Source of the DNA: Candidatus Krumholzibacteriota bacterium
Lineage (GTDB): Bacteria; Krumholzibacteriota; Krumholzibacteriia; JAJRXK01
DNA: 64,000 bases
Reading direction: 5' to 3'
Assembly (NCBI GenBank): GCA_963764625.1
Contig: CAVXTH010000007.1
Span: 128,001-192,000 of the forward strand
The translations under genes and the position numbers were made by a program. Positions 15,823-60,439 of the stretch are shown here, one piece after another. The notes under the pieces are model-generated. The model saw only the letters and a list, made by a program, of their open reading frames with translations, made no database searches and had not been told where the DNA came from. Position 1 is the stretch's first letter; each line of letters opens with the position of its first letter.

Positions 15823-16476
15823 CTAGTAACGAGCCTTCATCGCTCCCCAGCTGTCGGAGCTCGCGTCCACCGGCTGCAAGCAGTTGGTGTCCGCCGAAGT
15901 ATTGGCCGCGCCCGGCGTGATGCAGCGCGGACTGAAGTCCACGTTGTTCTGATCGGTATCCACACCGTCGGGATAGCGCGAGATGCCGAGGTAATCGAAG
16001 GCGGCGTCATCGATCAAGCCGACTCCCGATCCCTCCGTGTACGGGGCACCGGTATCACCTTCGTAGCTCACCGTGTCAATCAAAACACCATTCGCATCAA
16101 ACAGTGCCACCGCGTCGGGGGCACCGTTCTGGATGAGATTGGTGTCCGGTGTAACATCCATGTCGCAGTTGGTGGTATTGGCGCTGTCTCCGCAGAGGAC
16201 GAAATAGTCCCCGGCTGCGAGTGACATCGCCGGCAGGATGAAGAGCTGATACTGCACCGCGCCACCGCCGCTGCCGTTGACGAGCTCGACCGCCCAGCCG
16301 TTGAGATCGACCGCGGCTCCACTGACGTTCTTCAATTCGATGAATTCAGAGGCGTCCGTTCCAGCCTGGTCGTAGTCGATCTCGTTGATGACGATCTGTG
16401 CCATGACCATCGTGGCGCTGAAAAGCAGAATGAGGGCGACCATCGAGGATGTGAGAATCGTTCGCATTGGTCTCAT
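15823..16476 (-). CDS. Secreted lamin-tail-domain (LTD) protein with C-terminal SWGxxK tail
   Basis: Signal peptide (MVMA-Q); IVINEIDYD..SEFIELKN, IQNGAPDAVAL, ITPGAAN; ends VDASSDSWGAMKARY. Confidence 0.8.
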   Translation of the reverse strand: MRPMRTILTSSMVALILLFSATMVMAQIVINEIDYDQAGTDASEFIELKNVSGAAVDLNGWAVELVNGSGGGAVQYQLFILPAMSLAAGDYFVLCGDSANTTNCDMDVTPDTNLIQNGAPDAVALFDANGVLIDTVSYEGDTGAPYTEGSGVGLIDDAAFDYLGISRYPDGVDTDQNNVDFSPRCITPGAANTSADTNCLQPVDASSDSWGAMKARY

Positions 16477-16701
16477 GGAAGGACTTCCTTTCGTTGTGTC
16501 AAATGGGGGGCAAAGCCACTCAGGGACCTTTCTTGGCTTTTTCCAACAGCGGTGATCGATTCGCGGCGTGTCCCCCGGCAAGGGATGAAGGATGTTCGGA
16601 ACCAAGGGGAGCATACACCAAGAGGGGACCCGGAGTCGACCTGAGTTAGGCAGAGTGGGAGGTCGAGGGGCGCCGGTTCGAACCCCGGCGCTCCGAATGG
16701 A

Positions 16702-17454
16702 CTAGTCGTGGAACAGGCTCTTGATCATGCCCCAGCTCTTGCCTTCGGTGCCCACGAAGGGTTCGCAGCAGTCCGCGGTGGCTCGAAATACGAGATTACC
16801 AGGGAAATTGGAGACTGGGTCCGTGACGAGGTCGATGTCCTGACCACCGTTGAAGTTCCAGCTGGTACAGGCCGTGGGCACGCTATCGGTCACGATCCCG
16901 GGAACCCCACCAAGCCGACAGCGAACGTCGGAGAGGTGGATTCCAATGGCATAGAGGTAGCCCTTGTCCGCACAGACACAGTCGAGTGGCAGTCCCACGG
17001 TGTAGCCTCCCCCGCTGGGAAGGACCGCAGTGTAGGTGGAGGCCACGCAGTGCTCCTGGGTGACGGTATAGCAGCCTGGAGTCGTCTCCTCGGCTTCGGC
17101 GAAGGATGCCTGAACGTCTAACTCGCAGCTGTCTCCGCTCGAGACAGACACCAGAAAACGGATCTCCGTCACCTGGAAGCCAGTGGGGCACACCCCGCAA
17201 CCCTGCGTGGGATCGAAGATGAGGTAGTAGTCCTCGGGAGGTAGCAACCAACCCTCTATCGAAAAAGAACCGGCGCTGGCATTTCCTGTTACGCAACTCA
17301 CCGGAGGCAGGGAGACCTTGCCGGGCTCCATCGGAAATGCATCTTCGAGATTGTCGATCCGCTTCACGGTAGCCTTGCGTTGCGCGAAGGAAGTCTGCGC
17401 GACCAGACAGAAGAGCAGGATCAAAGAGAGTACGAGCACAACGCGTGAATGCAT
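16702..17454 (-). CDS. Secreted Cys-rich hypothetical protein with C-terminal SWGxxK tail
   Basis: GAGG RBS, signal peptide (TSFA-Q), ends VGTEGKSWGMIKSLFHD; hairpin at ~16668-16693 downstream. Confidence 0.75.
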   Translation of the reverse strand: MHSRVVLVLSLILLFCLVAQTSFAQRKATVKRIDNLEDAFPMEPGKVSLPPVSCVTGNASAGSFSIEGWLLPPEDYYLIFDPTQGCGVCPTGFQVTEIRFLVSVSSGDSCELDVQASFAEAEETTPGCYTVTQEHCVASTYTAVLPSGGGYTVGLPLDCVCADKGYLYAIGIHLSDVRCRLGGVPGIVTDSVPTACTSWNFNGGQDIDLVTDPVSNFPGNLVFRATADCCEPFVGTEGKSWGMIKSLFHD

Positions 17455-17609
17455 GATGACCTCACGGAGACCTGAAACGCAACGATACCCGGCACGGCGA
17501 TCGCGGCGCATCCAGAGACCAGGAGCCGTTAGCGGTAGTAGCGCCCTCTCGGGTGAATCTTGTCAAGCGCAATGTTGCACGACGGGAAGCGCCACGCGGT
17601 CGCTGCCGG

Positions 17610-19945
17610 CTAGGGCGCGTCGTTCGGCCGCTGGAAGGTCTCGATCCGTATCGGATGGTACAACCGATCGAGGTAAGCCTGCAGCCCGCGGAGAATCCAG
17701 ATCGCGGAATCTCCCTCGGGGAAGATCACAGCCGCCAACTCGTCGCTCAACGGGTTGAAGGAGGGCAGACCGGCGGAAGCGTATGATTTCGTCAGGAGCA
17801 GAGAGCGCCCCGACTCGGAATCGACGAGGTAGAGAGCTTTGTTCAACAGTCCGATCCGCGGTGACCGCGAGGCAGCGACCGTCGCGATTCCAAGCCGGAC
17901 GATAGAAGACCTCAGACGGCGAGCTCAGGCGCTTCGTCTCGCCACTCTTCAGGTCGAGTAGGTGAATCCCGTCGCTCTGACGCGTCCACGCGATTCGATC
18001 TCCCGCGAAAGAGAACGAAGGAAAGCCATTTCCGCCGTCACGGGTGAGTTGCCGAAGTTCGGGGGTTTGGAGATTTTCGAGCCAGATTTCCGAGCTTCCG
18101 CTGCGCTGAGAAGAGAAGGCGATCCACTTGCCGTCGGGCGACCAGCTGGGCGAGATGTCGTTAGCGGGATCGGAGGTGATGGGCGTGAGCTTGTCGCGCG
18201 TCAAATCGTAGAGGGCGAGATCGACGTTGCCATTCTGTAGCACCGAGAGGGCCAGGGACTTGCCGTCGGGTGACCAGGAAAGGACATCCAAAAACTTCTT
18301 CTGGGTCAGGATAGTTCTCTCGCTGCCTCCGTCGACGGACCGAATGCAGATGCGGCTCTGATTCCCCGGGTCGCCGACTCGATAGGCCAGTGACTTGCCG
18401 TCGGGAGACCAGGTGGGACTGATGTATTCCTGATCTCCTCGGGGGTCACGCGTGCCATGGTGAGAGGATCGATCGTCAAAGGCGTACAATAGAGAATCGC
18501 GACCTCGGGACGAACGTAGATCTGGCGTACCGCAGCTCGCCGTTGATGGCGGCGCGGTCATACAGCAGCGGTCGCAGAGCCGGTCGCAAAGCATGGATCG
18601 TGAGTTTGTCGAGCATGAGATAGCGTGCGTGTTTCTCGGGCCAGGAACTCCATGATGTCTTCGTATGCAGCTACCGGAATCTCCACATACCTCGCACCGG
18701 CGTAGAATGCAAAATAAGGCTTACGATCGGCGACCAGATCACCGGGCTGGATGCGATTTTCGATTTCAGTATCTGGGCTGTCTTTCGGCTAAATGCGAAT
18801 GTGCCCGAGATGGGCGTCACGAGCAGCGGGTAGTTGAGCCATACTCCGACGCCCCCGGCGACGAGCAGGCGCGAAAGATAAGCATCCAGCGCCTCCGCTT
18901 CCCACCCAAAATCTCCACTGCCGATCAAGGCATAGAGAATCAGAATCGGAAGATAGGGCAAGAATGAAGCGGGGCTCACTCCGCGGCGTGAAGGCCGGAT
19001 AGACCAGAAATGGAACCAGGGCGGCCGCGAGGATTCCCGCGCCTCTTCCACAGGCCAAAGAGCGCCAGGAGAAAGGCAACCGGAAGCAGATGTCGATTCA
19101 GCAGCAAAAGCTCATGGGGCAGTCGCTTCAGGTAGTCCGCTACGGCACTGGTATCTGGGTCTGTTCCTCGAGTCACCTTCTTGGCCAGCTGGGAAGTGGA
19201 AGAATCGATCAGGGCTTCGCGCTTCTGCCAAGGTGGGCACTCAGGCCGAAGTTTCCCGACTTGCTCAAGCAGCTGCAACCTGTCCAACCGAAACCGAGAG
19301 CGCCGCGCTGCCCAGCACGTAAACCAGCGCAAAGCCGCCCAGAAGTCGAAGTACTCGTCGCGGTGGCGCAGTTTGAACAGGCTGAGGACGGCGACGATCC
19401 CGATGGCTTCGGGCCGGGTGATCGCGGCCATTCCCAAAGACAGCCCGCTCTGCCCGGAATGCTCTCGGGTGAAAAGAAGCAGGGCCAGAAGGACCCAGAA
19501 GAGATAGAGACGACTCCGACATGGTCATGAGCGAGTACTGGATGAAGATGGGCTTGTCGCGCCAAGCACGCAGAGCGCCAACCATAGCCAGTTCCCGGCG
19601 CACGAATCGACCGCACAACAGATAGAAGACGCAGAGCGATGCCAGCGCGGCGAGCAGCGACACGGTCTGCGCCGCGCGAACCCCGTCGTGAATGATCGGC
19701 AACAGCAGCGCGATGAACGCCGGATAGCCAATGGGGAACGCGCTGGCGGAGTTTCCCGAGAGAAGGGTCTTGGCCTGGTTGATGTAGTACGTACCGTCAT
19801 ACGAGACCAAATCGAAAGTCTTCAGAAAGGGAATGCGGGCGGCGAGACTGACCAGAATCAGCGCCGTGCAGGCGTAACGGTCTCGAAGTACGAATTGGCG
19901 CCGGGAATCTCGTTTTGGTGAGGATGAACGTTTGGGCTTGGTCAA
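17610..19945 (-). pseudogene. GT39/PMT-like membrane glycosyltransferase fused to TolB/PD40 beta-propeller; multiple frameshifts
   Basis: Collinear fragments across frames: SYDGTYY..FPIGYP..MTMSES, AAITRPEA, FTPRSEPRF, GDLVADRKPYFAFYSG, then repeated SPTWSPDGK/SWSPDGK PD40 motifs. Confidence 0.65.
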
Positions 19946-21840
19946 GTTCGGTCGTCCTCTAGGACTTCACGCACCTTGCGCGCCAGCATTTCGATTCCGA
20001 AGGGCTTCGGAATGAAGTGCACGCCCTGATCGAGTATGCCCTGCCTCGAGATGGTGTCTGCTGTATATCCTGACATGAAAAGTGTCTTGAGATCGGGTTT
20101 CGTTTTCAGCAACGAGTCTTGGAGTTCTTTTCCGCTCATGTTGGGCATGACGACGTCGGTGATCAAGAGATCGAACTCATCACGATGGTCTTTGAAGATT
20201 TGTTGCGCCGTTTTTGCCGAATCTGCGACGAAGACAGTGTAACCAATGTCCTTCAGAACGGTGGTCACAAGATCGCGAACCATGGGGTCATCCTCGACCA
20301 GCAGCACACTCTCCGTGGCCGGCTCGAGGTGGACGAGATGCGCACCACTAATCGGAGCGGGTCGTTCGCTGCAACTGGGAAAGTGCAGAACGAAGGTCGT
20401 TCCCTTGCCCACGTCGCTGCTGAACCGGATGAACCCTCCGTACTGGGCCACGACGCTCTGCACCGTCGCCAGACCCAACCCAGTGCTGGTCGCCTCGTCC
20501 TTTGTGGTGAAGAAGGGCTCGAAGATGTGATCACGCGTCGCGGGGTCGATCCCTCGTCCGGTGTCGCTCACCGCAAGCTGGACGAATTCTCCGGGGGCGA
20601 CATCTGGTTCGTGGGCGATTTCTTCGGGGGGCACCACTACGTTCTTGGTCTCGATCTGAAGGCGTCCGCCCTTCGGCATCGCATCGCGAGCATTGGCCGC
20701 CAGGTTGGCGAGAATGTGGTCGAGCTGGGAAGGATCGATCTTGATTCGCCACAGATCGGCTCCAGGCTTGAAGACGAGTTCGATGTCCTCGCCGATCAGA
20801 CGACCCAGGGTCACTTGCATTCCTTCGACCGCCGGGTTCAATTCCAACGAGCGGGGACTGATGATCTGCTTGCGCGAAAATGCCAGGAGCTGACGAGTGA
20901 GGTCGGCCGAGCGTCTGGCGGCCTTGTCGATCTCCCGGATCTCTTCCGCGAGGCCCTCGTTCAAGCCCGAACGAGTCAGAATCAACTCCGTGTACCCGAG
21001 AATGACGTTGAGCATGTTGTTGAAGTCATGAGCCACGCCGCCGGCCAGTCGTCCAATGGCCTCCATCTTATGGGACTGTCGCAGCTGTTCCTCGACCGAG
21101 CGCAGCTTCGTGACGTCCTCCACGAGGGATAGGACCCCGAGAACCTCGCCATCCGTTCCGATCAGCGGCGCGTTGTACCACTCGCAGAGAATGGTCTTGC
21201 CGCTCTTGGTCACGTTCTTGTTCGTGCTTCGCTTCCCCCCAGATGCGTTCATGAGATTCTGCCAGATCTTGTCTACGTGTTCCCGTGCATCATCGGGCAC
21301 GATGAACCTCGCATGATGACCAATCGCCTCCTCTTTCGAGTGTCCGAAGATTCGCTCCGCCGCGAGATTCCATTGCGTCGCCTTGAACTCCGGGTCCCAG
21401 GTGATGATGGCCATGGGGGATTGCTGGACGATGAGAGCCAGGCTCTCGCGGTATTCCCGATACTGTTTCGCGCGCTCCTTGCGCTCGGTGATGTCGCGGA
21501 CGATCGCGATGAGGACCGGTTGATTGTCGTAGGAAGAGTACACTCCGTAGATTTCAGCGAGATAGTTCGTGCCGTTCTTGCGATGTCCCTCGCGCTCCAG
21601 CGAGTTTGTACGTGGGTCTCGGGCCTGGTCCATGAACTGCGGAAGGTCCTCGATGGGATCGAGATCGAGGATCTCATTGATACGTTTGCCGATGAGCTCT
21701 TCCCGGGTATATCCGGTCAGATCCGCGAAGGTGGGATTCGCGTTCAGGATGGTCGTGTTCGCGTCGATGACGCAAATGCCGTCGAGCATGCTCTCGTAGA
21801 TGGCGAGCAGCTCGTCGAAGGACGGAATGGCGTGGCGCAC
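19942..21840 (-). CDS. Hybrid sensor histidine kinase (PAS-PAS-HisKA-HATPase-REC)
   Basis: Two PAS/PAC domains, LAGGVAHDFNN, NARDAM, FEPFFTTK, GLGL, receiver LLVEDD..TDVVMP..MSGY..KPF. Start GTG 21840 chosen on its RBS. Confidence 0.92.
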   Translation of the reverse strand: MRHAIPSFDELLAIYESMLDGICVIDANTTILNANPTFADLTGYTREELIGKRINEILDLDPIEDLPQFMDQARDPRTNSLEREGHRKNGTNYLAEIYGVYSSYDNQPVLIAIVRDITERKERAKQYREYRESLALIVQQSPMAIITWDPEFKATQWNLAAERIFGHSKEEAIGHHARFIVPDDAREHVDKIWQNLMNASGGKRSTNKNVTKSGKTILCEWYNAPLIGTDGEVLGVLSLVEDVTKLRSVEEQLRQSHKMEAIGRLAGGVAHDFNNMLNVILGYTELILTRSGLNEGLAEEIREIDKAARRSADLTRQLLAFSRKQIISPRSLELNPAVEGMQVTLGRLIGEDIELVFKPGADLWRIKIDPSQLDHILANLAANARDAMPKGGRLQIETKNVVVPPEEIAHEPDVAPGEFVQLAVSDTGRGIDPATRDHIFEPFFTTKDEATSTGLGLATVQSVVAQYGGFIRFSSDVGKGTTFVLHFPSCSERPAPISGAHLVHLEPATESVLLVEDDPMVRDLVTTVLKDIGYTVFVADSAKTAQQIFKDHRDEFDLLITDVVMPNMSGKELQDSLLKTKPDLKTLFMSGYTADTISRQGILDQGVHFIPKPFGIEMLARKVREVLEDDRT

Positions 21841-22029
21841 GGATTGACCCCTCGCATGGACCCATCGCAGGGAATCCTGCTTGGAATGTTTGAGGGAAGC
21901 TGCCGGCAAGTCAAGGGGATAAGGGCCCGAGCCGGCCTTTCACGGCCAGTGGAGACTTGTGCATTGGCCACGTCGAGCCTACGCTATCGTGGTTCAAGAG
22001 GTCCGGTTCAACAACAAAGAAGCTCTCTC

Positions 22030-22869: not shown

Positions 22870-23147
22870 TCGATCGCATCTGGCTTGCAGTAGGACTCGT
22901 GGCGCAGGGAATGTTCATGGGACGTTTCCTGGTGCAATGGATCATCAGTGAGCGTAAAGGTGAGAGCACCATTCCAGTCGCCTTCTGGTATCTGAGCATC
23001 GCCGGCGGTATTCTGCTTCTGGCCTATGCGTGTTGGCGGCGCGATCCCGTATTCATTCTCGGGCAGAGCACCGGCATCATCGTGTACACTCGCAACCTCG
23101 TGCTCATGAGGCGCAGTCGCAGAAGAGCACTGCAGGCGGATGCCTAA
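22866..23147 (+). CDS. Lipid-A-disaccharide synthase N-terminal (LAB_N) domain membrane protein
   Basis: GLVAQGMFMGRFLVQWIISE..S.IPVAFWYLS..RRDPVFILGQ..YTRNL. Confidence 0.85.
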   Translation: MIDRIWLAVGLVAQGMFMGRFLVQWIISERKGESTIPVAFWYLSIAGGILLLAYACWRRDPVFILGQSTGIIVYTRNLVLMRRSRRRALQADA

Positions 23148-36228: not shown

Positions 36229-37206
36229 ATGCGAAATCTGGTCATCGCCGTCCTGACGGTCGCGGCACTTTTCTGTCCGCTCGTGGCCACGGCACAACCC
36301 CTGGCTTCCTATACCCAGGACTTCGAAGGCCTGGTGCAGACAGACGTGAACGCTCTGGCCAACGACGGCTGGCTCGTCTACGGCAACGTCTTCGACACGG
36401 ACGGTACCAGCTACCTGTACGGCTACGGTGCCTTTCCCGCCCCCAACACCGGCGCCGCATTCTGTCAGATCGTCATCGGCGAGGGTGGTCTAGAGCAGGG
36501 AGCGCAGCAGCTCGTCGTCTTCAGCGACTACGAGAACACCGATCACGCACTCGGCCACTATATCGAGTCCAACGTCTACCACGAGGAGAAAGTCGGTGCC
36601 GAGAACGTCGGTGAATCCTGGGTCTTCGAATTCGATTCGAAGCGCGGCAATCTGACGGGAAGCTCCACCGCCTTGGCCTTCATCAAGACCCTCGATCCCA
36701 GCAACGGCTACGCCCTGACCAACTTCATCACGGTGGACATGACGACGAGTCCCACCACCTGGAATCACTACTCGCTGTCCATCTCGATCGATGCGTCGCT
36801 GGAGGGTCAGTTGCTGCAGTTCGGCTACTCGAACACCGCCACGCTGTACGAAAGTGCGGGGATCTTCTACGACAACATCACCTTCCACCCGGATAATGCG
36901 ACGGGTAGCACGCCGGCTCGTTCCATGGTCGATGCCACCTTGCGGCAAAACTACCCGAATCCCTTCAATCCCAGCACCCGCATCGAATTCAGCCTGAATC
37001 AGGCGCAAAGCGTTGATTTGGCGGTCTTCGATCTGGCGGGTCGCCGTGTGGCCACGCTGGTGCGCGGCGCGCTCGAGAGCGGAGAGCATGCGGTGAACTG
37101 GAACGGTAGGAGCGACAACGGAGCTGCGGTGGCTTCGGGACGATACAACTACGTGCTGAGGACGCAGCACGGACAGCTGTCGGGAAGCATGACCTTGCTG
37201 AAGTAG
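36229..37206 (+). CDS. Secreted CBM-like beta-sandwich protein with FlgD-Ig/T9SS-type CTD
   Basis: GAGAGG RBS; signal peptide ATA-Q; LRQNYPNPFNPST...WNGRSDNG..VASG.Y CTD; paralog of 42409-43143. Confidence 0.8.
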   Translation: MRNLVIAVLTVAALFCPLVATAQPLASYTQDFEGLVQTDVNALANDGWLVYGNVFDTDGTSYLYGYGAFPAPNTGAAFCQIVIGEGGLEQGAQQLVVFSDYENTDHALGHYIESNVYHEEKVGAENVGESWVFEFDSKRGNLTGSSTALAFIKTLDPSNGYALTNFITVDMTTSPTTWNHYSLSISIDASLEGQLLQFGYSNTATLYESAGIFYDNITFHPDNATGSTPARSMVDATLRQNYPNPFNPSTRIEFSLNQAQSVDLAVFDLAGRRVATLVRGALESGEHAVNWNGRSDNGAAVASGRYNYVLRTQHGQLSGSMTLLK

Positions 37207-40200: not shown

Positions 40201-40734
40201 GAGGCTCTCACCGCCATGTACTTCAGGGTCCGTGCCGGGCTCGGATACGAGAAATCCGTAGCCGAATTCGGCGCGTTTCCTACCGATCCCTACTCGCACA
40301 CCCCGGCGGCGGGAGGCGCGAAGCAGCCGGGCATGACCGGTCAGGTGAAGGAGGAAATCCTCACCCGGCAGGGCGAACTCGGGATCAGGGTCGAACACGG
40401 GCGCGTTCGCGTTCGGCCCCTTCTCCTGCGCAGTGAGGAGTTCCTGGCCCAGCCCAAGGTCTTCCACTATTTCGACGTCTCGGGAACAGCGCGTTCGATC
40501 ACCTTGTGTACCGACAGTTTGGCCTTCACCTTTTGTCAGGTGCCGGTGATCCTGCAGCGCACCGCGGAGAAGACGCGAATCGAGGTATGCTTCGAGAACG
40601 GAACGTCCTCTTTGGCGCAAGGCGATACGCTCTCGGCCGAGCTGAGCGCGGAGCTCTTTTCGCGCAGTGGACGCATCGAGAAGATCTCGGTCAAGATTCC
40701 GGACCACGAACTTAGCCCACACGAGCGGAGATGA
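37234..40734 (+). CDS. Probable GH149 beta-1,3-glucan phosphorylase
   Basis: 1166 aa, no signal peptide; motifs RRHGDPSRPWN, EGNWRDIFQNWE, YWGDHQIIY, WMNTQRPEWNDANNAL, YEGLGCIYWHM, FPTDPYSHTP, QPGMTGQVKE recalled as typical of GH149; context with GH16/GH17. Confidence 0.75.
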   Translation: MKTKSSLNPVSPSTEELPGIPVGEFVCLEGEKYYRISAYDRLDPFLMSVPSDTDLWMFVTSGGGLTAGRVDADGSLFPYRTVDQLHDAHHHTGPLSSIQLEKASGECVRWDPFAEDGAENPRIEWNLYKNTIGNRLVFEEINHELALAFRYRWSACDEFGWVRSATLENRSPLVARVTLLDGLRNILPYGAPLSLYQQSSNLVDAYKKSEVDPETGLGIYSLTAQITDRAEALEMLKANTVWCCGLERFKVHLSLDAVKCFHARKLLTEDRVTNGIRGNYLVSCAVELQPKESARWHIVGDTGRDQIQIAALRKRLLEEDDLSGLIEEKLQLAGENLRRNVASADGLQFSELEETWVHHFTNVLFNNMRGGVFLYNYTLPMPDFRDFLRVHDPAVLRRRRAELDRLPEICELDQVHAAAQRSADPDLQRLSYEYLPLYFGRRHGDPSRPWNGFSIRTRNEAGEERLNFEGNWRDIFQNWEALGTAFPGFLSSMVAKFVNASTVDGFNPYRITRDGVDWETVVPNDPWSNIGYWGDHQIIYLLKLLESLDRHEPAALHELLEREIFSYAEVPYRIKPYEEILRNPRSTIDFDHARARDIEERVQRAGTDGKLLHDSDGSVYHANLFEKLLVPALSKLSNLVLDAGIWMNTQRPEWNDANNALGGGGVSVVTLCHLRRYLAFLTGRFEASTAKEYPVSREVADWLNSIESILGQERDLLTREHPGGRDRKRMMDALGEAFSVYRQGVYAHGFSGKTPVAVRRVVELCTTALEFIDHGIGANRRQDGLFHTYNLLDFAPDESSAEVKRLPVMLEGQVAILSSGFLRPQEALEVLERLFASALYQPSQRSFFLYPEREVPGFMAKNVVPRESVEEIPLLRELLAQKDHSVLGEDAEGVLRFCGEFKNALDVSVALDELKEREEWAGAVQRDRPATLELFEGVFHHESYTGRSGVMFGYEGLGCIYWHMIAKLLLAVQETIFRAFDDDAPPAVREALTAMYFRVRAGLGYEKSVAEFGAFPTDPYSHTPAAGGAKQPGMTGQVKEEILTRQGELGIRVEHGRVRVRPLLLRSEEFLAQPKVFHYFDVSGTARSITLCTDSLAFTFCQVPVILQRTAEKTRIEVCFENGTSSLAQGDTLSAELSAELFSRSGRIEKISVKIPDHELSPHERR

Positions 40735-42350
40735 CGATGCATCCCAAGAACCTGCTTCCCACTCTGGCGTTTCTGGCCTGCTTTGGCCTGCTTGCTCCCG
40801 TCTCGGCCAGTGCGCAGTGCATTTTGGCCAACCCCAGTTTCGAGTTGTCCGGATCGGGAGGGCAGACTTTCGGGGGCTGGAATCAGTTCGGGGTGGTCGG
40901 TTCGACGAACCTCGCCACTCACGGCTCCAAAGCGGCCCGGGTCTCTGGCCCGAACTACGGTGGCTGGGACGTGTCGGCCTACTGGCAGGCTCAGGATTGC
41001 GTTCCCGGTGAGCAGTGGGAGATCACCGGCCACGTCAGGATTCCCTCGAGCAAGCCCTTGATCGGGAGCTGCGTGGCCCTGGTGAATGTCGAGTGGCGCG
41101 ATTCGGGAGGGACCCTGATCGACTACGACTCCTTCACCGTTGCGGACGCTTCGTCGCCCACCGACACCTATCTCGATTTCGATTTGACCAGTAGCGCTGC
41201 TCCAACCGGAACCGCCTCCACGCGTCTCCTGCTCGGGGTTCTTCAGAGCCCGAGCGATCCTTCTCCCGATGTCTACTACGACCAGGTCACCTTTTTCAGC
41301 ACCTCTCCTCCAACCATCGACGACCAGCAGTGGAACGATTTCCCGGGGGGACGAACGGTCAGTTTCGGCGGATACACCTGGCGCGTCAAAGGCCCGGGAT
41401 TTTACGGACCCGGAGCCAATCTGTTTTGCGATTCCTCCGACTGCGTCTGGGTGGACTCGAGCAATCAGCTCCATCTCACCCTGCAGAATCGCAGTGGGTC
41501 GTGGTACAGCACCGAGGTCGTCAACGAACAGGCTCTGGGATACGGAGACTACATTCTGACGACGGTCGGCCGCCTGGACCTCATCGACCCCCAGGCCGTT
41601 CTCGGCATCTTCCTGTGGCAGTATGGACCGTGCTGGGACGACGCCTACCTGTGGTGGAATCCGTACAACGAGATCGACGTCGAGTACAGCCGTTGGCAGA
41701 ATCCGGGCGCAGACATCGCCCAGTTCGTCGCCCAACCCTTCGACTACCCGGGCAATCTGGTTCGCTTCGACGCGAGCTTCGCGCCGGGCGAGGTGGTCAG
41801 CCATGCCATGCGGTGGCTTTCGGACAGTGTCGAATACAGAGTGTGGCGCGGGGGTCCGAACGACGAATCACCGGCGAACCTCATTTACTCCTGGACCTAC
41901 ACCGGTCCGCACATTCCCCGCCCCGAGCAGCCACGGATGCACCTGAATCTGTGGAGAATCGACGGCGTGCCGGCCTCGAACCAAGAAGTGATCTTCCAGG
42001 ATTTCACCTACGTGCCCGAGGGAGGCCCGACCGCAGTCGAGGACGGCGGGGTGGCGCGAATTCCCTCGGTATCGGGCGGCCATCTCTACCCCGCGGTGCC
42101 GAATCCCTTCAATCCATCCACCACCATCCGCTTCGACCTGGCCCGGACCGGCTACGCGAGTCTCGAGGTCTACGACCTCAGCGGCCGGCACGTGCGGACC
42201 CTCGACAGCGGTTACCTGAGCGCGGGGCAGCACTGGGCGCTGTGGAACGGGCAGGACGAGCATGGCAAGACGGTGGCTTCTGGCGTGTACTTCCTGCGGC
42301 TGTCGGGCCAGGACTTCGTGAAGACCCAGCGAGTGGCCCTCATCAAATAG
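40731..42350 (+). CDS. Secreted CBM-like + GH16-like glucanase + FlgD/T9SS-type CTD
   Basis: Signal peptide ASA-Q; LANPSFE CBM-like domain; catalytic EIDVE (ExDxE) motif; AVPNPFNPST CTD. Confidence 0.7.
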   Translation: MTMHPKNLLPTLAFLACFGLLAPVSASAQCILANPSFELSGSGGQTFGGWNQFGVVGSTNLATHGSKAARVSGPNYGGWDVSAYWQAQDCVPGEQWEITGHVRIPSSKPLIGSCVALVNVEWRDSGGTLIDYDSFTVADASSPTDTYLDFDLTSSAAPTGTASTRLLLGVLQSPSDPSPDVYYDQVTFFSTSPPTIDDQQWNDFPGGRTVSFGGYTWRVKGPGFYGPGANLFCDSSDCVWVDSSNQLHLTLQNRSGSWYSTEVVNEQALGYGDYILTTVGRLDLIDPQAVLGIFLWQYGPCWDDAYLWWNPYNEIDVEYSRWQNPGADIAQFVAQPFDYPGNLVRFDASFAPGEVVSHAMRWLSDSVEYRVWRGGPNDESPANLIYSWTYTGPHIPRPEQPRMHLNLWRIDGVPASNQEVIFQDFTYVPEGGPTAVEDGGVARIPSVSGGHLYPAVPNPFNPSTTIRFDLARTGYASLEVYDLSGRHVRTLDSGYLSAGQHWALWNGQDEHGKTVASGVYFLRLSGQDFVKTQRVALIK

Positions 42351-42408: not shown

Positions 42409-43143
42409 CTAGTGGAAGAGAGCCTTCACTTTGCCGAAGCTCGATTCCTGCGCCGAAATCGCGCCGTCCATGAAGAAGCTCACGTTGTCGTAGAAGGTTC
42501 CCGAGGCCTCGAAGTTCGTGGCCCGATTCGAGAAGCCAAACTGCAGAATCTGGCCGGCCAGGCTCGGGACGATATCGATCGACAGCGCGTAATCACCCCA
42601 AGTCGCGGGGATGGATGTCATGTCTACCGTGATGAAATTCGTCGTCGCATAGCCGTTACCGGGATCCAGGGTCTTGATGAAGGCCAGAGCCGTCGAGGCT
42701 CCCGCCAGGTCACCGTGTTTGGCCTGGAAGGTGAAGAACCATTTTCCGCCAACGTCACCCGCAGCGATCGTCTGCTCGTGAAAGACATTGGACTCGACGA
42801 TATTTCCCGCGTTGTGCGCGTCGGCATTGTTGTAGTCGCTGAACACGACCAGTTGTTGGGCTCCCTGGGCCGCGCCGCCCTCCCCGGCCGCGATCGTACA
42901 GAACGCGTAGGGGGGACCGCTGTTGGGTGCCGGAAAGGCGCCATAGCCGCCGATATACGTGACGCCGTCTGGAGCAAAGACATTGCCGTAGACCAGCCAG
43001 CCATCGGCGCCAAGAGCGCCCGTGTCCGTCTGCCCGAGGGTCTCGAAATCCTGGCCGTACCCGCTTAGCTGAGCGCTCGCCATCACCGGCATCAGGCAGA
43101 TCAGCAGGGCGGCCGCAAAGATCGCAGTAGCTCGATTGGTCAT
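42409..43143 (-). CDS. Secreted CBM-like protein (paralog of 36229-37206) with short SFGxxK tail
   Basis: Signal peptide ASA-Q; shared blocks DGWLVYGNVF, YGAFPAPN, QGAQQLVVFSDY, STALAFIKTLDP; ends ISAQESSFGKVKALFH. Confidence 0.85.
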   Translation of the reverse strand: MTNRATAIFAAALLICLMPVMASAQLSGYGQDFETLGQTDTGALGADGWLVYGNVFAPDGVTYIGGYGAFPAPNSGPPYAFCTIAAGEGGAAQGAQQLVVFSDYNNADAHNAGNIVESNVFHEQTIAAGDVGGKWFFTFQAKHGDLAGASTALAFIKTLDPGNGYATTNFITVDMTSIPATWGDYALSIDIVPSLAGQILQFGFSNRATNFEASGTFYDNVSFFMDGAISAQESSFGKVKALFH

Positions 43144-50732: not shown

Positions 50733-50760
50733 ATCTCGCTTCCACAAGGAGGAGATTATC

Positions 50761-51423: not shown

Positions 51424-51437
51424 CAGGAGGTTTCGCA

Positions 51438-52457: not shown

Positions 52458-52473
52458 GGGGACTCCTCGGATC

Positions 52474-52953
52474 CTAGAATTGACCCTTCAGCATGCCCCA
52501 ACTGCTACGGGGCACCGCAACCGCGCCGGCATCCATACCATCACAGTCCTGGTCGATTCCGTCGCCAGGGATGTCGAGCGCGGCAGGGTTGATCGTAAAA
52601 TCAGAGTCGTCGCAATCACCCCCACCGAAGATCGTACCGAACTCGTTGCAGCTAAAGTCTGCGCTCAAAACCGTGCTGGAGTCAGAGCCCCAGCCATCCG
52701 CGTCTAGATCTTCGTAGCAGAGTTCGAACCCATCGCAGTCTTCGTCGATTCCGTCGCTGAGGAATTTCAACCGCTCCTGGATATAATGGAGTTAGTTGTC
52801 ATCGCAGTCATCGCCGCCGCAGGCAACCGAGATGTGACCGTCACCATCAAGATCCTCCGGACACTGGGCCCGCGCGGTGACGTTTCCGACAAGCAGACTG
52901 GATGCAAGGATGAGAGAAAACAGGTAAGAGACATGACTTAGCCTTGTTCTCAT
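52474..52953 (-). CDS. Secreted protein with MopE-related putative metal-binding repeats and SWGxxK tail; frameshifted near 52765-52795
   Basis: Signal peptide ARA-Q; DLDGDG..DCDD, DGIDEDCDG, DCDDSDFTINPAALDIPGDGIDQDCDG; ends VAVPRSSWGMLKGQF. Confidence 0.7.
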
Positions 52954-53254: not shown

Positions 53255-55473
53255 ATGGTGGTCAGATCAATAAAGCGCACTCATTCATCGGTATTTCCTG
53301 GTTTCACCCTCGCGTTTTTGTCATCGCTGGTGCTCTTCCTCGCTTGCTCCGCGCGTTGCGCAGTCGCGGATACCATCCAAGTCGCAAAGGATGGGTCGGG
53401 TGATTACTCGACTCTGCAAGAGGCGGTTGCGGCCTCCAGCGAGGGTGATCGCATCGAAGTAGGTCCGGGCACCTACAGCGAGGCCGGAGTGGAGGAAGCA
53501 GGGGTTCAGGTGACCCACAGTCTGGAGATCGTCGCGACATCGGGTCCCGAAGTTACGATCATCGACGGCGAGACCGTTCGACGTGGCTTTCTCTTTAGGG
53601 GCATACAGACGAGCCTCGTGCAGGGCTTCACTTTCCTCAACTGCTACCACAATGACATCGGCTCGGGGATTACGGTCACCGAAGGCGCGCACCTCGAGGT
53701 CGAAGGCTGTTCCTTCGAGCAAAATATGGCGGGTTATCAAGGAGGTGCGGTTCACGTACGTCAATCTGGATCGAGTTTACAGATCCGAGACTCCCAGTTC
53801 ACCGAGAATACATCCTACATAGGAGGAGCAGGTACCTCCATCCAAGGGGGGAGCCTCTCCTTTGAAAACTGCCTGTTCGAAAAGAACGTGGGCACCGAGA
53901 TCTACGGTACGCTGGCAACGAATGCGGCGTACCTTGGTGTCACGGGGTGCACCTTCATCGAAAACAGCGGGCCGAGTGGTACCTGCGTCAACTACTATGA
54001 GGCGGATGGCAAGGTCTTGGGGAACACCTTCTACAGGAATTCGGTCGGGATCGCGAGTGTGAGAGTCGATGCTCCGACCAAGAGAATCCTCGTGGCTAGA
54101 AATATCTTCTACGGTGAACAGCAAGGTTACGGCTTGGTGGAATACGGTGGGGTGGACGAGAGCTGCAATCTCTACTACCAGAACGCGAAGGGCAGCAATC
54201 TGAGCTGATCATGTCGGCAGATAGTGCGGGAGGTACTTTTGGAGAAGAAGTCGCGACCACGGTGAGCCTGCGTTTGGCGGATGCAGATGCACCCGTCGTG
54301 TCTTCGATTGGAGGCCTGGACTTCGTTCTGCTGTGGAACCCCATCGTCGCTACCTTCGTCAGAGTTGAACCCACCGAGGAGACGGCAAACTGGCAGATTG
54401 CCAACGATGCCACTCACGCCCCGTATGGGGAACTTCACGTCTCCATGGCTGGTCTCGATGGTTTCGACGTGGGTCCGGAGAAAGTGAATGCCTTGCGGAT
54501 AGTCTTCGAGTTCAACTCGGACGGAGGTTATACCTCGCTGGACCTGACTCAGACGAAGGTTTTTACGACTGAACCAGCTCCCGTTTCTCATGGTACCGAA
54601 GCAGGTACGCTCACGGAAGGTTGTGAGAAGGGTGACGTCTATCCCGACGGCAGCATCGACTCGGCGGACGCCATCCTGGCATTGAAGATTGCGATTGGAC
54701 TGGTCCAGGCCACTCCAGCGCAACTCTGTGCCGCCGACATGAACGATGACGGAAAGGTCGATGTCGGCGATGCCGTGCTGATACTCCGTACGGCCGTTGG
54801 TTCGCTCAAAACGGACTTGGCAAAGTCGAGCACACTTGCGAGCAGTGTCGAATTGAACCCGAGTTCGGAGGGGGCGACGCTGAATCTCTCAGGAATTGCC
54901 GGCTTCGATGCCGAGTTGATCTACGCTCCAACCAAGATCCACTTTGTGGCCGGTAGCTCTCAAAGTGGGCTCGTGATCGTCAATGATGAGCAGGAAGGGC
55001 TGATTCAGGTGGCCTACGCTGCAAGCTCCGAGAATGACGCTGCCGTCAATCTGCACTTCGAGTCCTTGAATGGGGGAGGGTTGCTCACCCTTCAGCAGGT
55101 GTGGGGTTGCGATCTCGGAGGACAAAGCGTGGGTCTGAGCAACGACGAGCAGAGCGTGTTCGTTTCGTTGACCGCAACCTCGACGCCAAGTAGCTCTCGA
55201 AAAGCGGAGCTGCTGGGCATCTATCCCAATCCCTTCAACCCGCAGACGGTAATCAAATTCCGTCTCGATGCGCATGAATCAGATCTGAGGATCTATGATA
55301 CGGCGGGTCATCGGGTGAAGAGCTTTGATCTATCGCATCTCGGGTCCGGTGAGCATAGCATTCGTTGGTTCGGAAGGGATGAGGCGGGGCGTACGGTTGC
55401 GAGTGGCGTGTACTACGTCAGACTGCAGACTTCTCATGGGGCAGAAGTGCTCAGGGCCGTGCTCCTGAAGTAG
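53255..55473 (+). CDS. Secreted right-handed beta-helix + cohesin-like + dockerin + FlgD/T9SS-type CTD protein, split at 54206-54211
   Basis: GSGDYSTLQEAV..GPGTYSE..GPEVTIIDG beta-helix ORF 53255-54208. ORF 54211-55473 lacks a signal peptide and has GDVYPDGSIDSADA / ADMNDDGKVDVGDA dockerin loops and IYPNPFNPQT. Confidence 0.65.
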
Positions 55474-55491
55474 GCGAGAGGCTCATTCGAA

Positions 55492-55513
55492 GGGGCTCCC
55501 CCGGGGGAGCCCC
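55492..55513. terminator. Hairpin between convergent genes
   Basis: GGGGCTCCC-CCGG-GGGAGCCCC. Confidence 0.6.
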
Positions 55514-55518
55514 ATTCC

Positions 55519-58308
55519 TCAGCGATATCCGAAGAGCACCGAGTAGAGAATGAGCCCGATGAGGATCGTCCCCAGGGTGAGCGCGGTGAACCCGAGGATC
55601 TTCACCGCCAGCATACGTCGGCGTGAAATGCTGGTGGTTTCCACGTAGCGCTTCAGTCCACCAAGATCCTTCAAATCCGCCACCGCACGAGGACGATCCT
55701 TCTTGTACTCCTCGTAGGGCACGACGCCAGTGAAGATCACGGTATCCATGGGGAACGCCTCGGGCCTCAGATGAGTATTGAAGAAGTGGATGGTGAAAAT
55801 GAAACCAACCGCGAGCAACGCCTCGTCGCTGTGGATGATGGTGGCGACGTTGATGAGCCAGCCGGGGAGGAACTTCGTGAAGAGCTCGGGTAGCCAAAGC
55901 ATCAGCCCCGAGAGACCGATGACTGCGATTCCCCAGAACACCGCCAGATAGTCGAACTTCTCCCAGTAGGTCCAACGTCCGTACTCCGGTCGCGGACCCT
56001 TGCCCCAGAACCACTTCACCGAGGCGATGAACTCGTGGAAGTCCCGGCGATTGAACATGAGCGAGTTGGGCCCGAAGATCAGATCCTTGAGCGAGACCTT
56101 GCGCTTTCTCTTGAAGAGCGCGAGGGAGGCAAGGTGGAAGGCGAAGTATCCGAAGGTGATCACCGCAGCTGTGCGGTGGATCAGACCTGCATTACGCACT
56201 CCACCGAGCATCGCGGAGAGTCTGACTGCCCAGGGCATGCCCGAGAACTTCAACATCATCCCCGTGAGCGCGAGGGTCAGGAAGCTGATGATGACGAAGA
56301 TGTGCGTATACTGCTGGGGCTTCGTGAAGCGGCGTACGTAGTGACGGGTACGTCCTTCTTCCACCGCCTTGCGTCTGCGCTCTCGCATGCTCTTGAACGA
56401 GCGTGGGAGCCACATCAAAGTGTGAATGCCGAAGAACGAGAACACGCCCACCAGAAGGAGCGTCATTGACCAGTAGGTGTAATACAACACCGGATACCGC
56501 ACCGGATCGTGGTGTGTGGCATGGGTGAGGTAACCGGTGAACCGCCGATTCGCATCCGCGTGACACTTCCGGCAGGTGGTCACGATGTTTCGGAAGGCGA
56601 CCGAGGATGCCGGATCGTTGACGCTCAGAATGAGATGCGCGCCATGGCAATCAGAACACTTCGCGGACTTCAAGAAGCCCAACTGATAGGCCTTTCCGTG
56701 CATCGTCTTCAGATAGGTCTTGGCCAGCTCCTCGTGACACGAGCCGCACTGCTGGGTCACTTGCCGCATGAACTCGTCCTGTTGGGTCGATTCGATGCGG
56801 TGCGAAGTGTGGCAACGCGCGCAGGTGGGGACCTTCTTTTCATCTTTGGGGTCGGAAGAGTAGTGAATGCTCTTGATGAACTCTTTGTAGATCCCCCGGT
56901 GACAGTTTGCGCATGTCGCAGGCAGGTTTCGCGGATAAACCTTGGAGCGATTGTCCGAGGCGGGGAGAATCAAGTGGCTGCCGTGGCAATCGATGCAGAT
57001 GGCGCTGGGAAGAAGGCCCTTTTCCGTCAACGCGCGCCCGTGGACGCTCTTGGAGTAGTCGTTGAACGCGGATTTTTCCGTGAGATCAGCGGCGGTATTG
57101 GCAGCTCCTCCTTTGGTGTGACACTTGCCGCATAGTGCCGGCACGTTCGAGCGGAAAGTCAGCGATCGTTCGTCGTTGTGGCGATACGCGTTGTGGGTTC
57201 CATGACAATCGGTACAGTAGGGAGCTTCTTTCACTCCGGAAGCCCAGTCCTTGCCGTGACCGCTCTCGAAATACTCCTCGGAGATCTTCGAGTGGCAGGC
57301 CGAACAGTCCACTCTACCCGACGGCTCGCAGGGCCGGTGCAGGCGCGGATCGATATCAGAATGGCACTTCACGCAGGGAATCGTGGTGTGGGCGGAATCC
57401 TGCAGCACCTTGGAATCAACGTACATCGAGAGCGTGTCGCCGCTGGCGGAGACCGAGTGCAATGTGTGGTCAGCGTGACAACGTAGGCACTCCCGATCGG
57501 AGACCGTCATCGCAACGGTTTCCTTGCGGGTCAGGTGCGGTCGGTGACAGTCCGTGCACGACGGAATCGCGCCGGGCTTCTGTTCCCAGAGCTCACCCCG
57601 AATGACCTTGGCATGCACCTTTTCGATCTGTGCATGACACTTCATACAGGTCTTGGCTATGTTGCGTGGCGAGATGGTCGCGTTCGGATCGGTATGCGGG
57701 AGAATCCGGTGGCTACCGTGGCAGTCGTTGCAGGTCGCGGTGACGATGAGCCCCTTTTTGAACAGCCCTTCACCGTGGATGCTCTGACTGTAGTTCTCGA
57801 GAATGTTGGTTTGACCGATCTTGTAGGTGCTCGCGACGGGCGCACCCTCTTTGTGGCAACGGCCGCATGTGAGGGGGATGTTGGTTTTGTAGACCTTCGA
57901 CTTTGGGTCTCTGGGGGAACGAATGTCGTGAATCCCGTGACAGTCGGGGCAGTCGGGCGCATAGGGCAGGCCGCCGCTCAGGGCCTGACCATGGATACTC
58001 GAATCGAAGTCGAGCTGCTCGTCGTCGTGGCAGTTGCCGCAGCGGACCTTGGCCAGCCGTTCGGGGTGGTCCTCGCTGGCGTCCTCATGACAGTCGGTGC
58101 ACGAGAGATCAGCGTGAACCGACGCGGCGAACGCTTTGGCGTTCACGTAGAGCGAGAAGGTGGTGCCCTGCCGTTCCGTGGAGAAATCGGGGTCGTCATG
58201 GCACATCAGGCAGGTCTCGTTGTCGGTCTGGGCCCGCACGGAACCCGTCACCAACAGCCCTCCCACCAGCATCAGCCAGAAGAGCACTCGCTTTGATCCT
58301 CGATCCAT
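55519..58308 (-). CDS. Multiheme cytochrome c (19 CxxCH) fused to FdnI/HydC-like cytochrome b (CbcL-like)
   Basis: 19 CxxCH motifs counted; C-terminal TM domain with [38 protein letters not shown]. Confidence 0.88.
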
Positions 58309-58559
58309 GCCGCCACTCCGCTGGAACCCGGGAACTCCCGAACGAAAGCTCGATAACCAGGTCGAACAATTGTGATTTTGGGGGCCCTGTCAAGGTGAAG
58401 TGGAGTTCCCGTGCGATGGGACCATCCTGCGATTTCCCCCGATTCCGGGCCGAATCGGGCCATTTGCGAAATTCCCATGGACAGACGCGCGAGGGTGGAG
58501 AGAGGCTCATGGGGCCAGAGTGAATCCAGAGACTTCCTCGGACCAGGGAGGGCAAGTCG

Positions 58560-59084
58560 GTGCGCACGGTTCGATTTCTCCTAGTCTTGTCCAGTAGCAT
58601 CTTGCTCGTGGCGGTGGGATGCTCGCAGAGAACCCAGCCGTCCGAGGAGTTGGCGCACTACGCGCTGGACGACATGGATGGGGTGATCACTCAGACCGGC
58701 GTCGAGCTCGACAAGGCGGTGTCGAGCGATGCGGGCGGTTCCCTGCATCTGACGACGACCGATTCGACCACGGTGAGCCTTTTCGAGACGGGTGACCTGA
58801 AGGTGGAGGGCGCTAGGCTCATCTACTCGGCGAAGATCCGCACCCAGGACCTGGAGGGAAAGGCCTACCTGGAAATGTGGTGCCACTTCCCGGGAAAGGG
58901 CGAGTACTTCTCCCGTGGGCTCACCGATCCTCTGACCGGGAGCCAGGACTGGAGCTCCCAGGAGACCTCCTTCTTCCTGAAGAAGGGTCAGGATCCGGAC
59001 CAGGTGAAGCTCAACCTCGTGGTCACCGGGCCCGGTGAGGTGTGGATCGATGATCTACGGCTGGTGAAGGCTCCGCTTCCGTAG
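58560..59084 (+). CDS. Hypothetical lipoprotein (CBM-like jelly-roll)
   Basis: Lipobox AVGC; AYLEMWCHF, GEVWIDD. Confidence 0.65.
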   Translation: MRTVRFLLVLSSSILLVAVGCSQRTQPSEELAHYALDDMDGVITQTGVELDKAVSSDAGGSLHLTTTDSTTVSLFETGDLKVEGARLIYSAKIRTQDLEGKAYLEMWCHFPGKGEYFSRGLTDPLTGSQDWSSQETSFFLKKGQDPDQVKLNLVVTGPGEVWIDDLRLVKAPLP

Positions 59085-59134
59085 GCGGACCTTGGCGGGG
59101 TCGGTCGAGCGAAACGGGAGCGCGGGCTCGCGAC

Positions 59135-59602
59135 TCAGTTCTTTAGCATCCCTTCTGGCATTTCAACGCACACGATTTCTCCCGTGGCGCAAACGACGCC
59201 CTCGGCGGAGAGTTCGGCGTCGATGACGACCTTTCGACCCTTGATTTCCTTGATCTTGCCGCGAATGACCAACTCCGGTCCCATGGGCGTCGGCTTCAGG
59301 TAGTTCACGTGGAGGGCGGCGGTCACGAAGCGGGGAATCCTCTCGCCCTCCGTCCCGCCCCGATGGCGGTGCATCGCGGCGGCGGCAGAGCCGGTGCCGT
59401 GGCAGTCGATGAGGGAAGCGATGAGCCCGCCGTACACGTACCCCACGATGGCGGTGTGATAGGGCTTGGGCTGGAAGGTGCAGACTGTTTCGTCGCCATC
59501 CCAGTAACTCTTGATCTGGTGACCATGCTCGTTCAGGGCACCGCAGCCGTAGCAGTGCTGGACATCCTCCGGGTAGAGGTCCTGGAATGCGACTCGCTCC
59601 AT
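59135..59602 (-). CDS. PaaI family thioesterase (hotdog fold)
   Basis: CYGCG..NEHG, YGGLIASLIDCHG, VTAALHVNYLKPTP. Confidence 0.85.
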   Translation of the reverse strand: MERVAFQDLYPEDVQHCYGCGALNEHGHQIKSYWDGDETVCTFQPKPYHTAIVGYVYGGLIASLIDCHGTGSAAAAMHRHRGGTEGERIPRFVTAALHVNYLKPTPMGPELVIRGKIKEIKGRKVVIDAELSAEGVVCATGEIVCVEMPEGMLKN

Positions 59603-59628
59603 ATCCGTGATTCCCTTCTGAGAAAAGA

Positions 59629-59657
59629 GAAAGCCCCCACCAAAGGAGGGGGCTTTC
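59629..59657 (-). terminator. Intrinsic terminator
   Basis: GAAAGCCCCC...GGGGGCTTTC followed by a U-rich tract on the minus strand. Confidence 0.7.
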
Positions 59658-59683
59658 CATTGTATCTCCCAGGCTCAACTAAG

Positions 59684-60439
59684 TCACTTGCCGTAACTCG
59701 ACTTGATCTTGCTGAAGGAGACCGCTTGTGCATCCACTGGAGACATCGCGCTGATCTCGACCACGAAATCCTGGTAGTCGTTGTCAGTACAATGGTCGCA
59801 GTAGCTCGAAGTGATGTCGCCACTGTAGTCCAGGTCTTCCCAGGCCAGAACGAAGGTGGGAACGCCGCCACGGAGATCCGTGATGTCATACACGAGACAC
59901 TGCACGTCGCCATCTGTCGGCGCGTGCACTCCGCCGCCCCCGGACACGCCGAGGTCGTTGTAGAAGCGATTGACGAAGAAAAGCTCCGGTTCGGGTGCGT
60001 TGATGGAGTCCAGCGGACCATTGGGGTTGAGATAGAAGCTAAACGTCGTCACGCCGGAGGGGAATACGATCGATGCCGTCGCTCCGACCCCCGACGGGCC
60101 ATCAAAGATCACACCGTCGTCCACTCCATCGATGACGGGTTGACTCAAGGTCTCCTTGTACCAGCCGAAGGTGTTTTGGGGACTGTAGCCCGCGACCTCG
60201 CGAACGATGATGCCGTAGATTCCAAGGTCTTCCCAATACACGGGGTCGGGGTCGCCGGAGTTTGCGCCGATGTAGTCGTTCTGGGCGTCGATGACGCCAA
60301 CACCGTACTCAGCATCGAGTACGCTCTGAAGGGAGATACCATCCCACGACGTGCCGAAGGTGACAGGGAAGGCGTGGGCTGAGGAAGCAAGAAGCAGGGC
60401 CAGCAGCGCGCAGCCCATTCCGCGAACAAGGTTGTGCAT
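59684..60439 (-). CDS. Secreted DUF4114-like protein with SFSxxK tail
   Basis: GGAGG RBS, signal peptide AHA-F; EVAGYS..NTFGWY; LAWEDL...DNDYQDFVVEI; ends VDAQAVSFSKIKSSYGK. Confidence 0.7.
   Translation of the reverse strand: MHNLVRGMGCALLALLLASSAHAFPVTFGTSWDGISLQSVLDAEYGVGVIDAQNDYIGANSGDPDPVYWEDLGIYGIIVREVAGYSPQNTFGWYKETLSQPVIDGVDDGVIFDGPSGVGATASIVFPSGVTTFSFYLNPNGPLDSINAPEPELFFVNRFYNDLGVSGGGGVHAPTDGDVQCLVYDITDLRGGVPTFVLAWEDLDYSGDITSSYCDHCTDNDYQDFVVEISAMSPVDAQAVSFSKIKSSYGK

Follow-up and report, generated by a model that had tools for sequence, protein, structure and literature searches.

In the genome of an uncultured salt-marsh Krumholzibacteriota bacterium (3.57 Mb in nine contigs, 96% complete), about 50 proteins of diverse build, most of them exported, end in the same short peptide, a tag of about 17 residues that swaps with the type-A C-terminal domain (CTD) of type IX secretion (the T9SS) and co-occurs with that system. 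Five of the carriers lie in the window, as we call the whole stretch of 64,000 nucleotides analysed here (G000:C7:128001-192000 of the assembly; positions without a contig prefix count from its first letter), and it was their common ending that a preliminary description of the window had pointed out. The reading to which we give a probability of roughly one half makes the tag a modular label at the C-terminus, for addressing or docking, that a protein of the cell envelope recognises. A little more tentatively, it would be part of an undescribed sorting or surface-docking system, parallel to the T9SS in Krumholzibacteriota, Eisenbacteria and allied members of the Fibrobacterota-Chlorobiota-Bacteroidota (FCB) group, in which CTD and tag would stand for two destinations. 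A conserved envelope receptor would there hold a C-terminal peptide of roughly 10 residues and thereby bring dozens of small binding and enzyme modules to their place on the cell, the choice of a CTD or a tag version of one protein deciding where it goes.

The census covered a stop-to-stop six-frame translation of the genome (38,916 open reading frames, ORFs, of at least 50 aa; 5.24 M residues), which was scanned with the strict pattern S[WF][GSA].[MILV]K..[YF] and also with a relaxed one, unanchored. The strict pattern matched 33 times, and every match ended within nine residues of the stop, 15 of them directly at it, seven at one residue, four at two, five at three, one at four and one at nine (log10 P = -43.8 if position were uniform). 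Reversed sequences gave a single match and five shuffles gave 1, 0, 3, 2 and 2. With the relaxed pattern 57 matches were obtained, 48 at 0-4 residues from the stop, three at 5-9, two at 10-49 and four at 50 or more; it finds 51 C-terminal ORFs, and about 50 carriers are counted in the genome, a load of tagged proteins that corresponds to roughly 1-2% of genes; in the window the relaxed pattern found the five known carriers only. The consensus reads [VI]-[PA]-[AT]-x3-[ST]-[WF]-G-x-[LVIM]-K-[AS]-x-[YF]-x0-4-stop, with a conserved V/I six residues before the motif S, followed by P/A and then A/T. At positions outside the pattern, V stands at -6 in 35 of 50 tails, P at -5 in 23 and A/T at -4 in 38, and a Cys is found at -8 to -10 in 18 of the 50; within the core, K is present in all 50 (as the pattern requires), G in 46, S/T in 45 and A/S in 48, and the tails often close with a trailing R.

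Of the tail ORFs that reach 150 aa, 41 of 45 were called as having a signal-peptide-like start, compared with 360 of 1494 controls (Fisher p 1e-20), using a crude heuristic that over-calls, as its 24% of positives among the controls shows. Among the tail ORFs that lack such a start are some short fragments and two duplicates that are broken, and a simple lipobox pattern was seen in 2 of 41 tail proteins. Once their tails were removed, 48 bodies fell into 38 BLAST clusters, the largest being a six-member family; about 30 bodies have no Pfam match at all, and the domains recognised on the others are LTD, MopE, DUF4114 (2), Beta_helix (3), Temptin_C, fn3, Cohesin (2), OB, Peptidase_C25 and Phosphoesterase. 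The preliminary description had reported the five ORFs with their endings, had derived from them a C-terminal consensus, and had noted that the five carriers are signal-peptide-bearing proteins with unrelated bodies. All of this holds up: the five endings read as described, the consensus stands with P/A and A/T after the V/I added to it, 33 of 33 strict matches lie at most nine residues from the stop, and the enrichment (41/45 versus 360/1494) and the 38 clusters among 48 bodies extend the picture to the whole genome. Tail proteins are also small: their median length is 233 aa (n = 41), and that of ORFs with a CTD is 622 aa (n = 80; Mann-Whitney p 7e-10).

The relation to the T9SS is seen most directly in the way proteins end. 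The genome encodes SprA, about 80 ORFs with a type-A CTD, and a PorU-like gene with a PorV-family gene next after it, this PorU-PorV operon being accompanied by six further, weaker PorV-family matches. Tail carriers share the setting of CTD proteins, being Sec-exported by the signal-peptide heuristic (41/45) in a genome with SprA, PorU-like and PorV-family genes. The CBM-like protein of the window (CBM, carbohydrate-binding module; Table 1) has 983 homologues at E<=0.001, and among the best 120 of these, 96 match the tail pattern, five have degenerate tails, 17 carry a FlgD_ig/T9SS CTD and two end otherwise; none of the CTD forms among these 120 keeps the motif. The sources of its close homologues call them Candidatus Krumholzibacteria or Krumholzibacteriia. 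Tail and CTD forms of this family run parallel to a shared FYDN motif and diverge right there. One such pair lies inside the window, where the CTD-form paralogue is 61% identical to the tail form over 220 aa of body, the alignment breaks after FYDN, and TIGR04183 matches the paralogue at G000:C7:164952-165173. Peptidase C25 and LTD (lamin-tail domain) tail bodies likewise have CTD-bearing paralogues elsewhere in the genome, giving three in-genome pairs in all. An exchange of tag and CTD at one junction is what a sorting module would be expected to show. In the DUF4114-like family, 112 of the best 120 homologues match the tail pattern, five have degenerate tails and none of the 120 has a CTD. 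The two endings are also used side by side, the gene of the 539-aa CTD protein being convergent with that of the CBM-like tail protein at a distance of 58 bases.

Table 1. Tag-bearing proteins of the window and the CTD-bearing proteins discussed with them (tag positions in window coordinates).
Feature	Position	Strand	Evidence
Lamin-tail-domain protein, 217 aa, signal peptide; tag = last 15 residues (15826-15870), stop 15823-15825	15823..16476	-	ORF reading
Exported Cys-rich protein, 250 aa; tag = last 17 residues (16705-16755)	16702..17454	-	ORF reading
325-aa paralogue of the 42409-43143 protein in CTD form; T9SS type-A/FlgD_ig-type end, no tag	36229..37206	+	61% identity over 220 aa, TIGR04183
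Secreted protein with T9SS type-A CTD, 539 aa	40731..42350	+	PF13860 2e-08, TIGR04183 1.7e-07
CBM-like beta-sandwich protein, tail form, 244 aa; tag = last 16 residues (42412-42459)	42409..43143	-	ORF reading, AlphaFold2, Foldseek
MopE-repeat protein, gene interrupted; tag = last 15 residues (52477-52521)	52474..52953	-	ORF reading, PF11617
DUF4114-like exported protein, 251 aa; tag = last 17 residues (59687-59737)	59684..60439	-	ORF reading

Tag and CTD show no sign of common descent. When the window tail proteins were compared with Pfam (E<=0.1) and NCBIfam (E<=1), none of the five matched TIGR04183, PF18962 or PF13860, while the neighbour at 40731-42347, serving as control, did; and aligning the tails by hhalign with the CTDs of this genome plus 36 upstream residues gave a probability of 0.16%, that is, no likeness. 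A homology of the tail with the CTD or its upstream linker was considered and dropped, as none was found and the V-P-like residues that precede both modules are too weak a likeness.

Two family alignments at 50-80% identity, made without the tail pattern, were used to look at conservation. In both, the linker varies freely (entropy 2.5-3.3 bits), V, S, W/F, G, V/L, K, A/S and F/Y are conserved, and the motif K is retained in 98-100% of the sequences, so that the tag, as judged from these alignments, is under purifying selection. AlphaFold2 (AF2) models built on 65- and 64-sequence alignments consist of confident bodies, a coil linker and a core helix of 6-7 residues, the latter with a predicted local distance difference test (pLDDT) score of ~75 and ~61. 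For the CBM-like protein (pLDDT 91.6) the model places a sandwich at residues 29-225, coil at 226-235 and helix at 236-241, with CBM16/22/61-like matches in Foldseek, and for the DUF4114-like protein a helix at 242-248 (pLDDT ~61). In neither family do strands follow the body, and hence the models contain no seven-stranded beta-sandwich in the tag. The helical hydrophobic moment of the core is 0.23, compared with 0.24 for 9-mers of the bodies, and the strand-type moment is 0.40 versus 0.26. With these moments, the helical core drawn in the models is likely and no more; the amphipathic helix of the preliminary description finds weak support, AF2 drawing a short helix at modest pLDDT and the helical moment being at background. 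The spacing G-x3-[AS] would bring two small residues onto one side of the predicted helix, a side that may serve as a protein-contact surface.

A hidden Markov model (HMM) built from A1, an alignment of 35 tails that include those of the lamin-tail-domain and Cys-rich proteins of the window, found matches in 151 of 151 sampled Krumholzibacteriota genomes (1-54 each among the matches listed), and in the five weakest-matching genomes (G002, G062, G110, G024 and G071) all 24 loci read were true tails. SprA is encoded in 150 of these 151 genomes, the exception being 86% complete; over the sets of tail-bearing genomes tested it was found in 150/151, 5/5 and 5/5. In Eisenbacteria, 35 of 61 genomes (a tally that includes G259, flagged unpublished) matched at E<=1e-5, five of the 26 non-matching genomes gave 18-48 matches each when searched again at E<=0.01, all five having SprA, and the ten loci that were read all proved to be true tails. 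The species-genome collection was further searched with a codon pattern, S-W-G-x-[LVIM]-K-x-x-Y-R-stop, that allowed TGG at the stop position. It occurred in at least 119 places, and in the 80 loci examined 84 of 84 matches ended in TAA, TAG or TGA, never in TGG, all being ORF ends that also carry the V-P-[AT]/P-V-E context upstream, which the pattern had left unspecified. By record title most of these belong to Eisenbacteria and Krumholzibacteria, with single records of Coatesbacteria, Effluviviaceae and Anaerolineaceae (a 3.6-kb contig); a match in Humidesulfovibrio lies in a 63-aa ORF and is likely due to chance. G154, the one Coatesbacteria genome, encodes SprA and bears one tail or more, A1 giving no match in it at E<=0.01. 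Metagenome-assembled genomes labelled Latescibacterota, Fibrobacteraceae and UBP1 belong to the same phylum of GTDB as the window and are the same genomes sampled again, and viral contigs gave no match to one codon version of the motif, which is weak evidence. The preliminary description's mention of similar tails in FCB candidate phyla is borne out for Krumholzibacteriota and Eisenbacteria.

In the address-label reading, the tag would follow small proteins exported by Sec, most of them of a single domain, and be joined to them by a variable linker that is probably disordered, and after their arrival in the periplasm an envelope receptor protein would read it and so fix the final place of the protein. 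On the same cores it would act as the alternative to the type-A CTD of ~80 residues. Because it alternates with the CTD, its most likely fate is one other than passage through SprA and surface attachment by PorU/PorV; docking to an outer-membrane or surface partner is a possible destination. We infer that the tag is a signal at all and that it has a link to the T9SS, and that its reader would be a protein, because the invariant K, the G that is nearly so and the small residue four positions on suit a tight contact with a protein better than a general anchoring in the membrane.

The strongest of the other explanations, which we still regard as unlikely, is that the tag needs no reader and is a self-sufficient interfacial anchor, a short amphipathic segment that sticks to a membrane leaflet, to lipopolysaccharide or to peptidoglycan. 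C-terminal helices of some penicillin-binding proteins (PBPs) are membrane-sticking anchors of this kind. The short predicted helix on a flexible linker agrees with such a role, as does a make-up typical of interfacial peptides, in which K and frequently a final R accompany W/F, L/V and Y/F, and the gene neighbourhoods yielded no gene for a reader; however, it is the identity of the residues that is conserved and not hydrophobicity alone (the 98-100% for K comes from alignments free of the pattern), the helical moment of 0.23 equals background, and the conserved core has just nine residues. PBP5/6-type C-terminal anchors and the membrane-targeting sequence of MinD conserve amphipathicity and not sequence, each within a single family. 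The tag resembles them in its predicted short C-terminal helix, its aromatic, aliphatic and Lys/Arg residues and its flexible linker, and departs from them in keeping residue identity over dozens of families in two phyla and in a helical moment that is not raised.

Rather less probable is a minimal T9SS export signal, in which the tail would replace the folded CTD and target the SprA translocon or a shuttle of the PorV family. The tail does take the place of the CTD on the same cores, SprA is found in the tail-bearing genomes tested (150/151, 5/5, 5/5), and the present genome offers a PorU-PorV operon and six weaker PorV-family matches. According to the accessible part of PMC10994853, the type-A CTD has a near-invariant Lys near its C-terminus, functionally important, whose main role is said to be elsewhere in transport; the same source describes a C-terminal helix of SkpA that, in the Extended Translocon of Flavobacterium, touches PorV from the periplasmic side, a contact reported as non-essential. 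SkpA offers an earlier example of an outer-membrane component of the T9SS touched by a short C-terminal helix that sits at the end of a disordered stretch (PMC10994853, accessible part), with the difference that it is a single component protein and the tag is shared by cargo. In the solved complexes, as that part of the source reports them, the whole seven-stranded CTD is bound over ~1,850 square angstroms (PMC10994853), an interface beyond the reach of a nine-residue core. The hhalign probability of 0.16% speaks against this export signal as well, and the part of the T9SS literature surveyed mentions no such tail in Bacteroidota.

Improbable, in our view, is a processing or turnover signal, that is, a site for a periplasmic C-terminal protease or a PDZ-type sensor which would govern maturation or degradation and not location. 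The strictly C-terminal position, in most cases with the aromatic residue at the end or 0-4 residues before it, and the strand-type moment of 0.40 versus 0.26, which is expected where a peptide is bound by strand addition, would suit it; but a constitutive degron on about 50 unrelated, stable-looking modules in two phyla has no obvious rationale, and the exchange with a secretion domain favours a role in localisation. That the tail has no function of its own, the endings being alike by accident or forming the final structural element of bodies that are related, is refuted for practical purposes, since one six-member paralogue family supplies six tails with nothing else beyond small paralogue families in its favour, and against it stand 0-3 matches in shuffled sequences versus 33, 38 body clusters, and the tail's place behind a variable linker outside the folded domain.

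Several results weigh against the address label itself. No reader was identified from the gene neighbourhoods; neither phylum yielded a genome free of tails, so that phyletic profiling had no contrast by which to weigh a candidate, and the co-occurrence with the T9SS is uninformative. CTD proteins, which form a cluster of 22 ORFs, and PD40- or TPR-bearing Ser/Thr kinases, which form one of 14, are the only neighbours that recur beside tail genes. A CTD gene lies within 500 bp of 6 of 50 tail genes versus 2.07 expected (p ~0.016, weak), and a PD40/TPR Ser/Thr kinase within 2 kb of 7 of 50 versus 2.6 expected (p ~0.013), and neither enrichment survives correction for the number of things examined. 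The AF2 confidence over the tail is modest (pLDDT 61-75) and helical amphipathicity is not above background. In addition, a few tails of relatives run on for 10-25 Pro/Ala-rich residues past the motif (L200 in G002, L202 in G110), and a free carboxylate right behind the motif is therefore not universal.

Among known systems the type-A CTD of the T9SS (TIGR04183/PF18962, here FlgD_ig-like PF13860) comes closest, as it occupies the extreme C-terminus of unrelated Sec-exported proteins in the same genomes, is interchangeable with the tag at the same junction, and has a conserved Lys near its end as the tag does. After transport, PorU takes such a CTD off, and the cargo is either joined to anionic LPS or set free. 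The tag differs from it in having 15-17 residues instead of 70-100, no beta-sandwich, no HMM or profile similarity, and smaller carriers. LPXTG/sortase, PEP-CTERM/exosortase and GlyGly-CTERM/rhombosortase are tripartite C-terminal sorting signals. The tag is like them a short, lineage-restricted C-terminal motif on many unrelated exported proteins per genome and, unlike them, has neither a hydrophobic transmembrane stretch nor a basic cluster, with 0-4 residues to the end in 32 of 33 strict matches; in contrast to these signals, we know of no cognate intramembrane enzyme for it, no search aimed at one having been made. An outer-membrane-protein beta-signal, the closing strand of a beta-barrel with an aromatic residue at its very end, was also considered and set aside, the modelled bodies being soluble beta-sandwiches and the aromatic residue standing last in just 15 of the 33 strict matches.

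None of the five window tails is covered by a Pfam or NCBIfam model. The motif has no transmembrane segment, in agreement with the preliminary description, which had set it apart from LPXTG, PEP-CTERM and GlyGly-CTERM (for which NCBIfam gave no match). The openly accessible part of the literature, searched with motif strings and for the topics of Krumholzibacteria secretion and sorting signals, returned nothing relevant. New here are the genome-wide census, the tag in every sampled genome of the phylum, the size contrast with CTD proteins, the pair inside the window and the search for a reader, negative so far. Several times, C-terminal sorting signals have been the way in to envelope machines that were new (sortase, exosortase, rhombosortase, T9SS), and if the tag is such a signal, it would supply a ready list of cargo and, in the invariant K and G, a handle of one-residue resolution toward the reader, as well as better localisation calls for thousands of metagenomic 'hypothetical proteins'. 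The natural pairs of CTD and tag paralogues, for example in the glucan-utilisation locus of the window, would serve as built-in experimental controls.

As to the individual window ORFs, PF00932 covers residues 26-139 of the lamin-tail-domain protein (E 4.8e-20) with no model over its tail, the Cys-rich protein has no match in Pfam or NCBIfam, and PF13448 matches the DUF4114-like protein under the cut-off (E 0.0018). The MopE-repeat protein had been listed earlier as one reading frame, 52474-52953. Its tail is present as stated, and the gene is split by an in-frame TAA at 52792-52794, with the tail on a 98-aa ORF (52474-52770) that PF11617 matches and the signal peptide encoded in the part upstream. 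At 52740-52800 (minus strand), some 15 codons after the TAA continue the usual repeat only if the frame is shifted (P-G-A-V-E-I-P), and this points to a pair of frameshifts that compensate each other, to an error of assembly or to a gene in decay.

A second interrupted gene was noted among the beta-helix tail genes, where one paralogue has a TGA at G000:C8:97403-97405 in the place of a Trp in its sister (C5:391425-392759), dividing the gene into ORFs of 581 and 163 aa; this looks like a TGG-to-TGA change and not like recoding. The tail genes end in TAG in 26 of 50 cases, versus 711 of 2405 long ORFs of the genome (odds ratio 2.6, p 0.0015), and in other genomes TAG closes 53 of 82 unique tails. 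A spread of the tail as a mobile DNA cassette was rejected, as the 80 nt past the stops resemble each other in no more than two pairs of genes, both recent duplicates, and the downstream folding energy is control-like (-17.8 versus -16.7 kcal/mol).

Of the T9SS genes, the PorU-like gene before porV (G000:C6:500214-504442) is distributed over three ORFs that overlap and differ in frame, through either assembly frameshifts or a broken gene. Weaker PorV/PorQ-family matches (G000:C9:1055156-1056203, C9:892821-893824, C9:936731-937506 and C9:85813-89336) sit directly downstream of genes for CTD proteins, and one such match lies upstream of a CTD gene and a tail gene on the same strand. The arrangement recalls the cognate pairs of cargo and shuttle known for type-B CTDs, as far as the accessible part of PMC12618676 describes them. 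The kinases near tail genes, among 32 kinase-like ORFs in the genome, have a PD40 beta-propeller or TPR and are found at 17563-18720 and 61844-64000 of the window, at G000:C6:16348-28727 and at other places. Finally, at G000:C6:227494-240318 four tail genes flank the gene of a 2201-aa T9SS-CTD protein with DUF4082, Big_5, GH16-like and cohesin domains.

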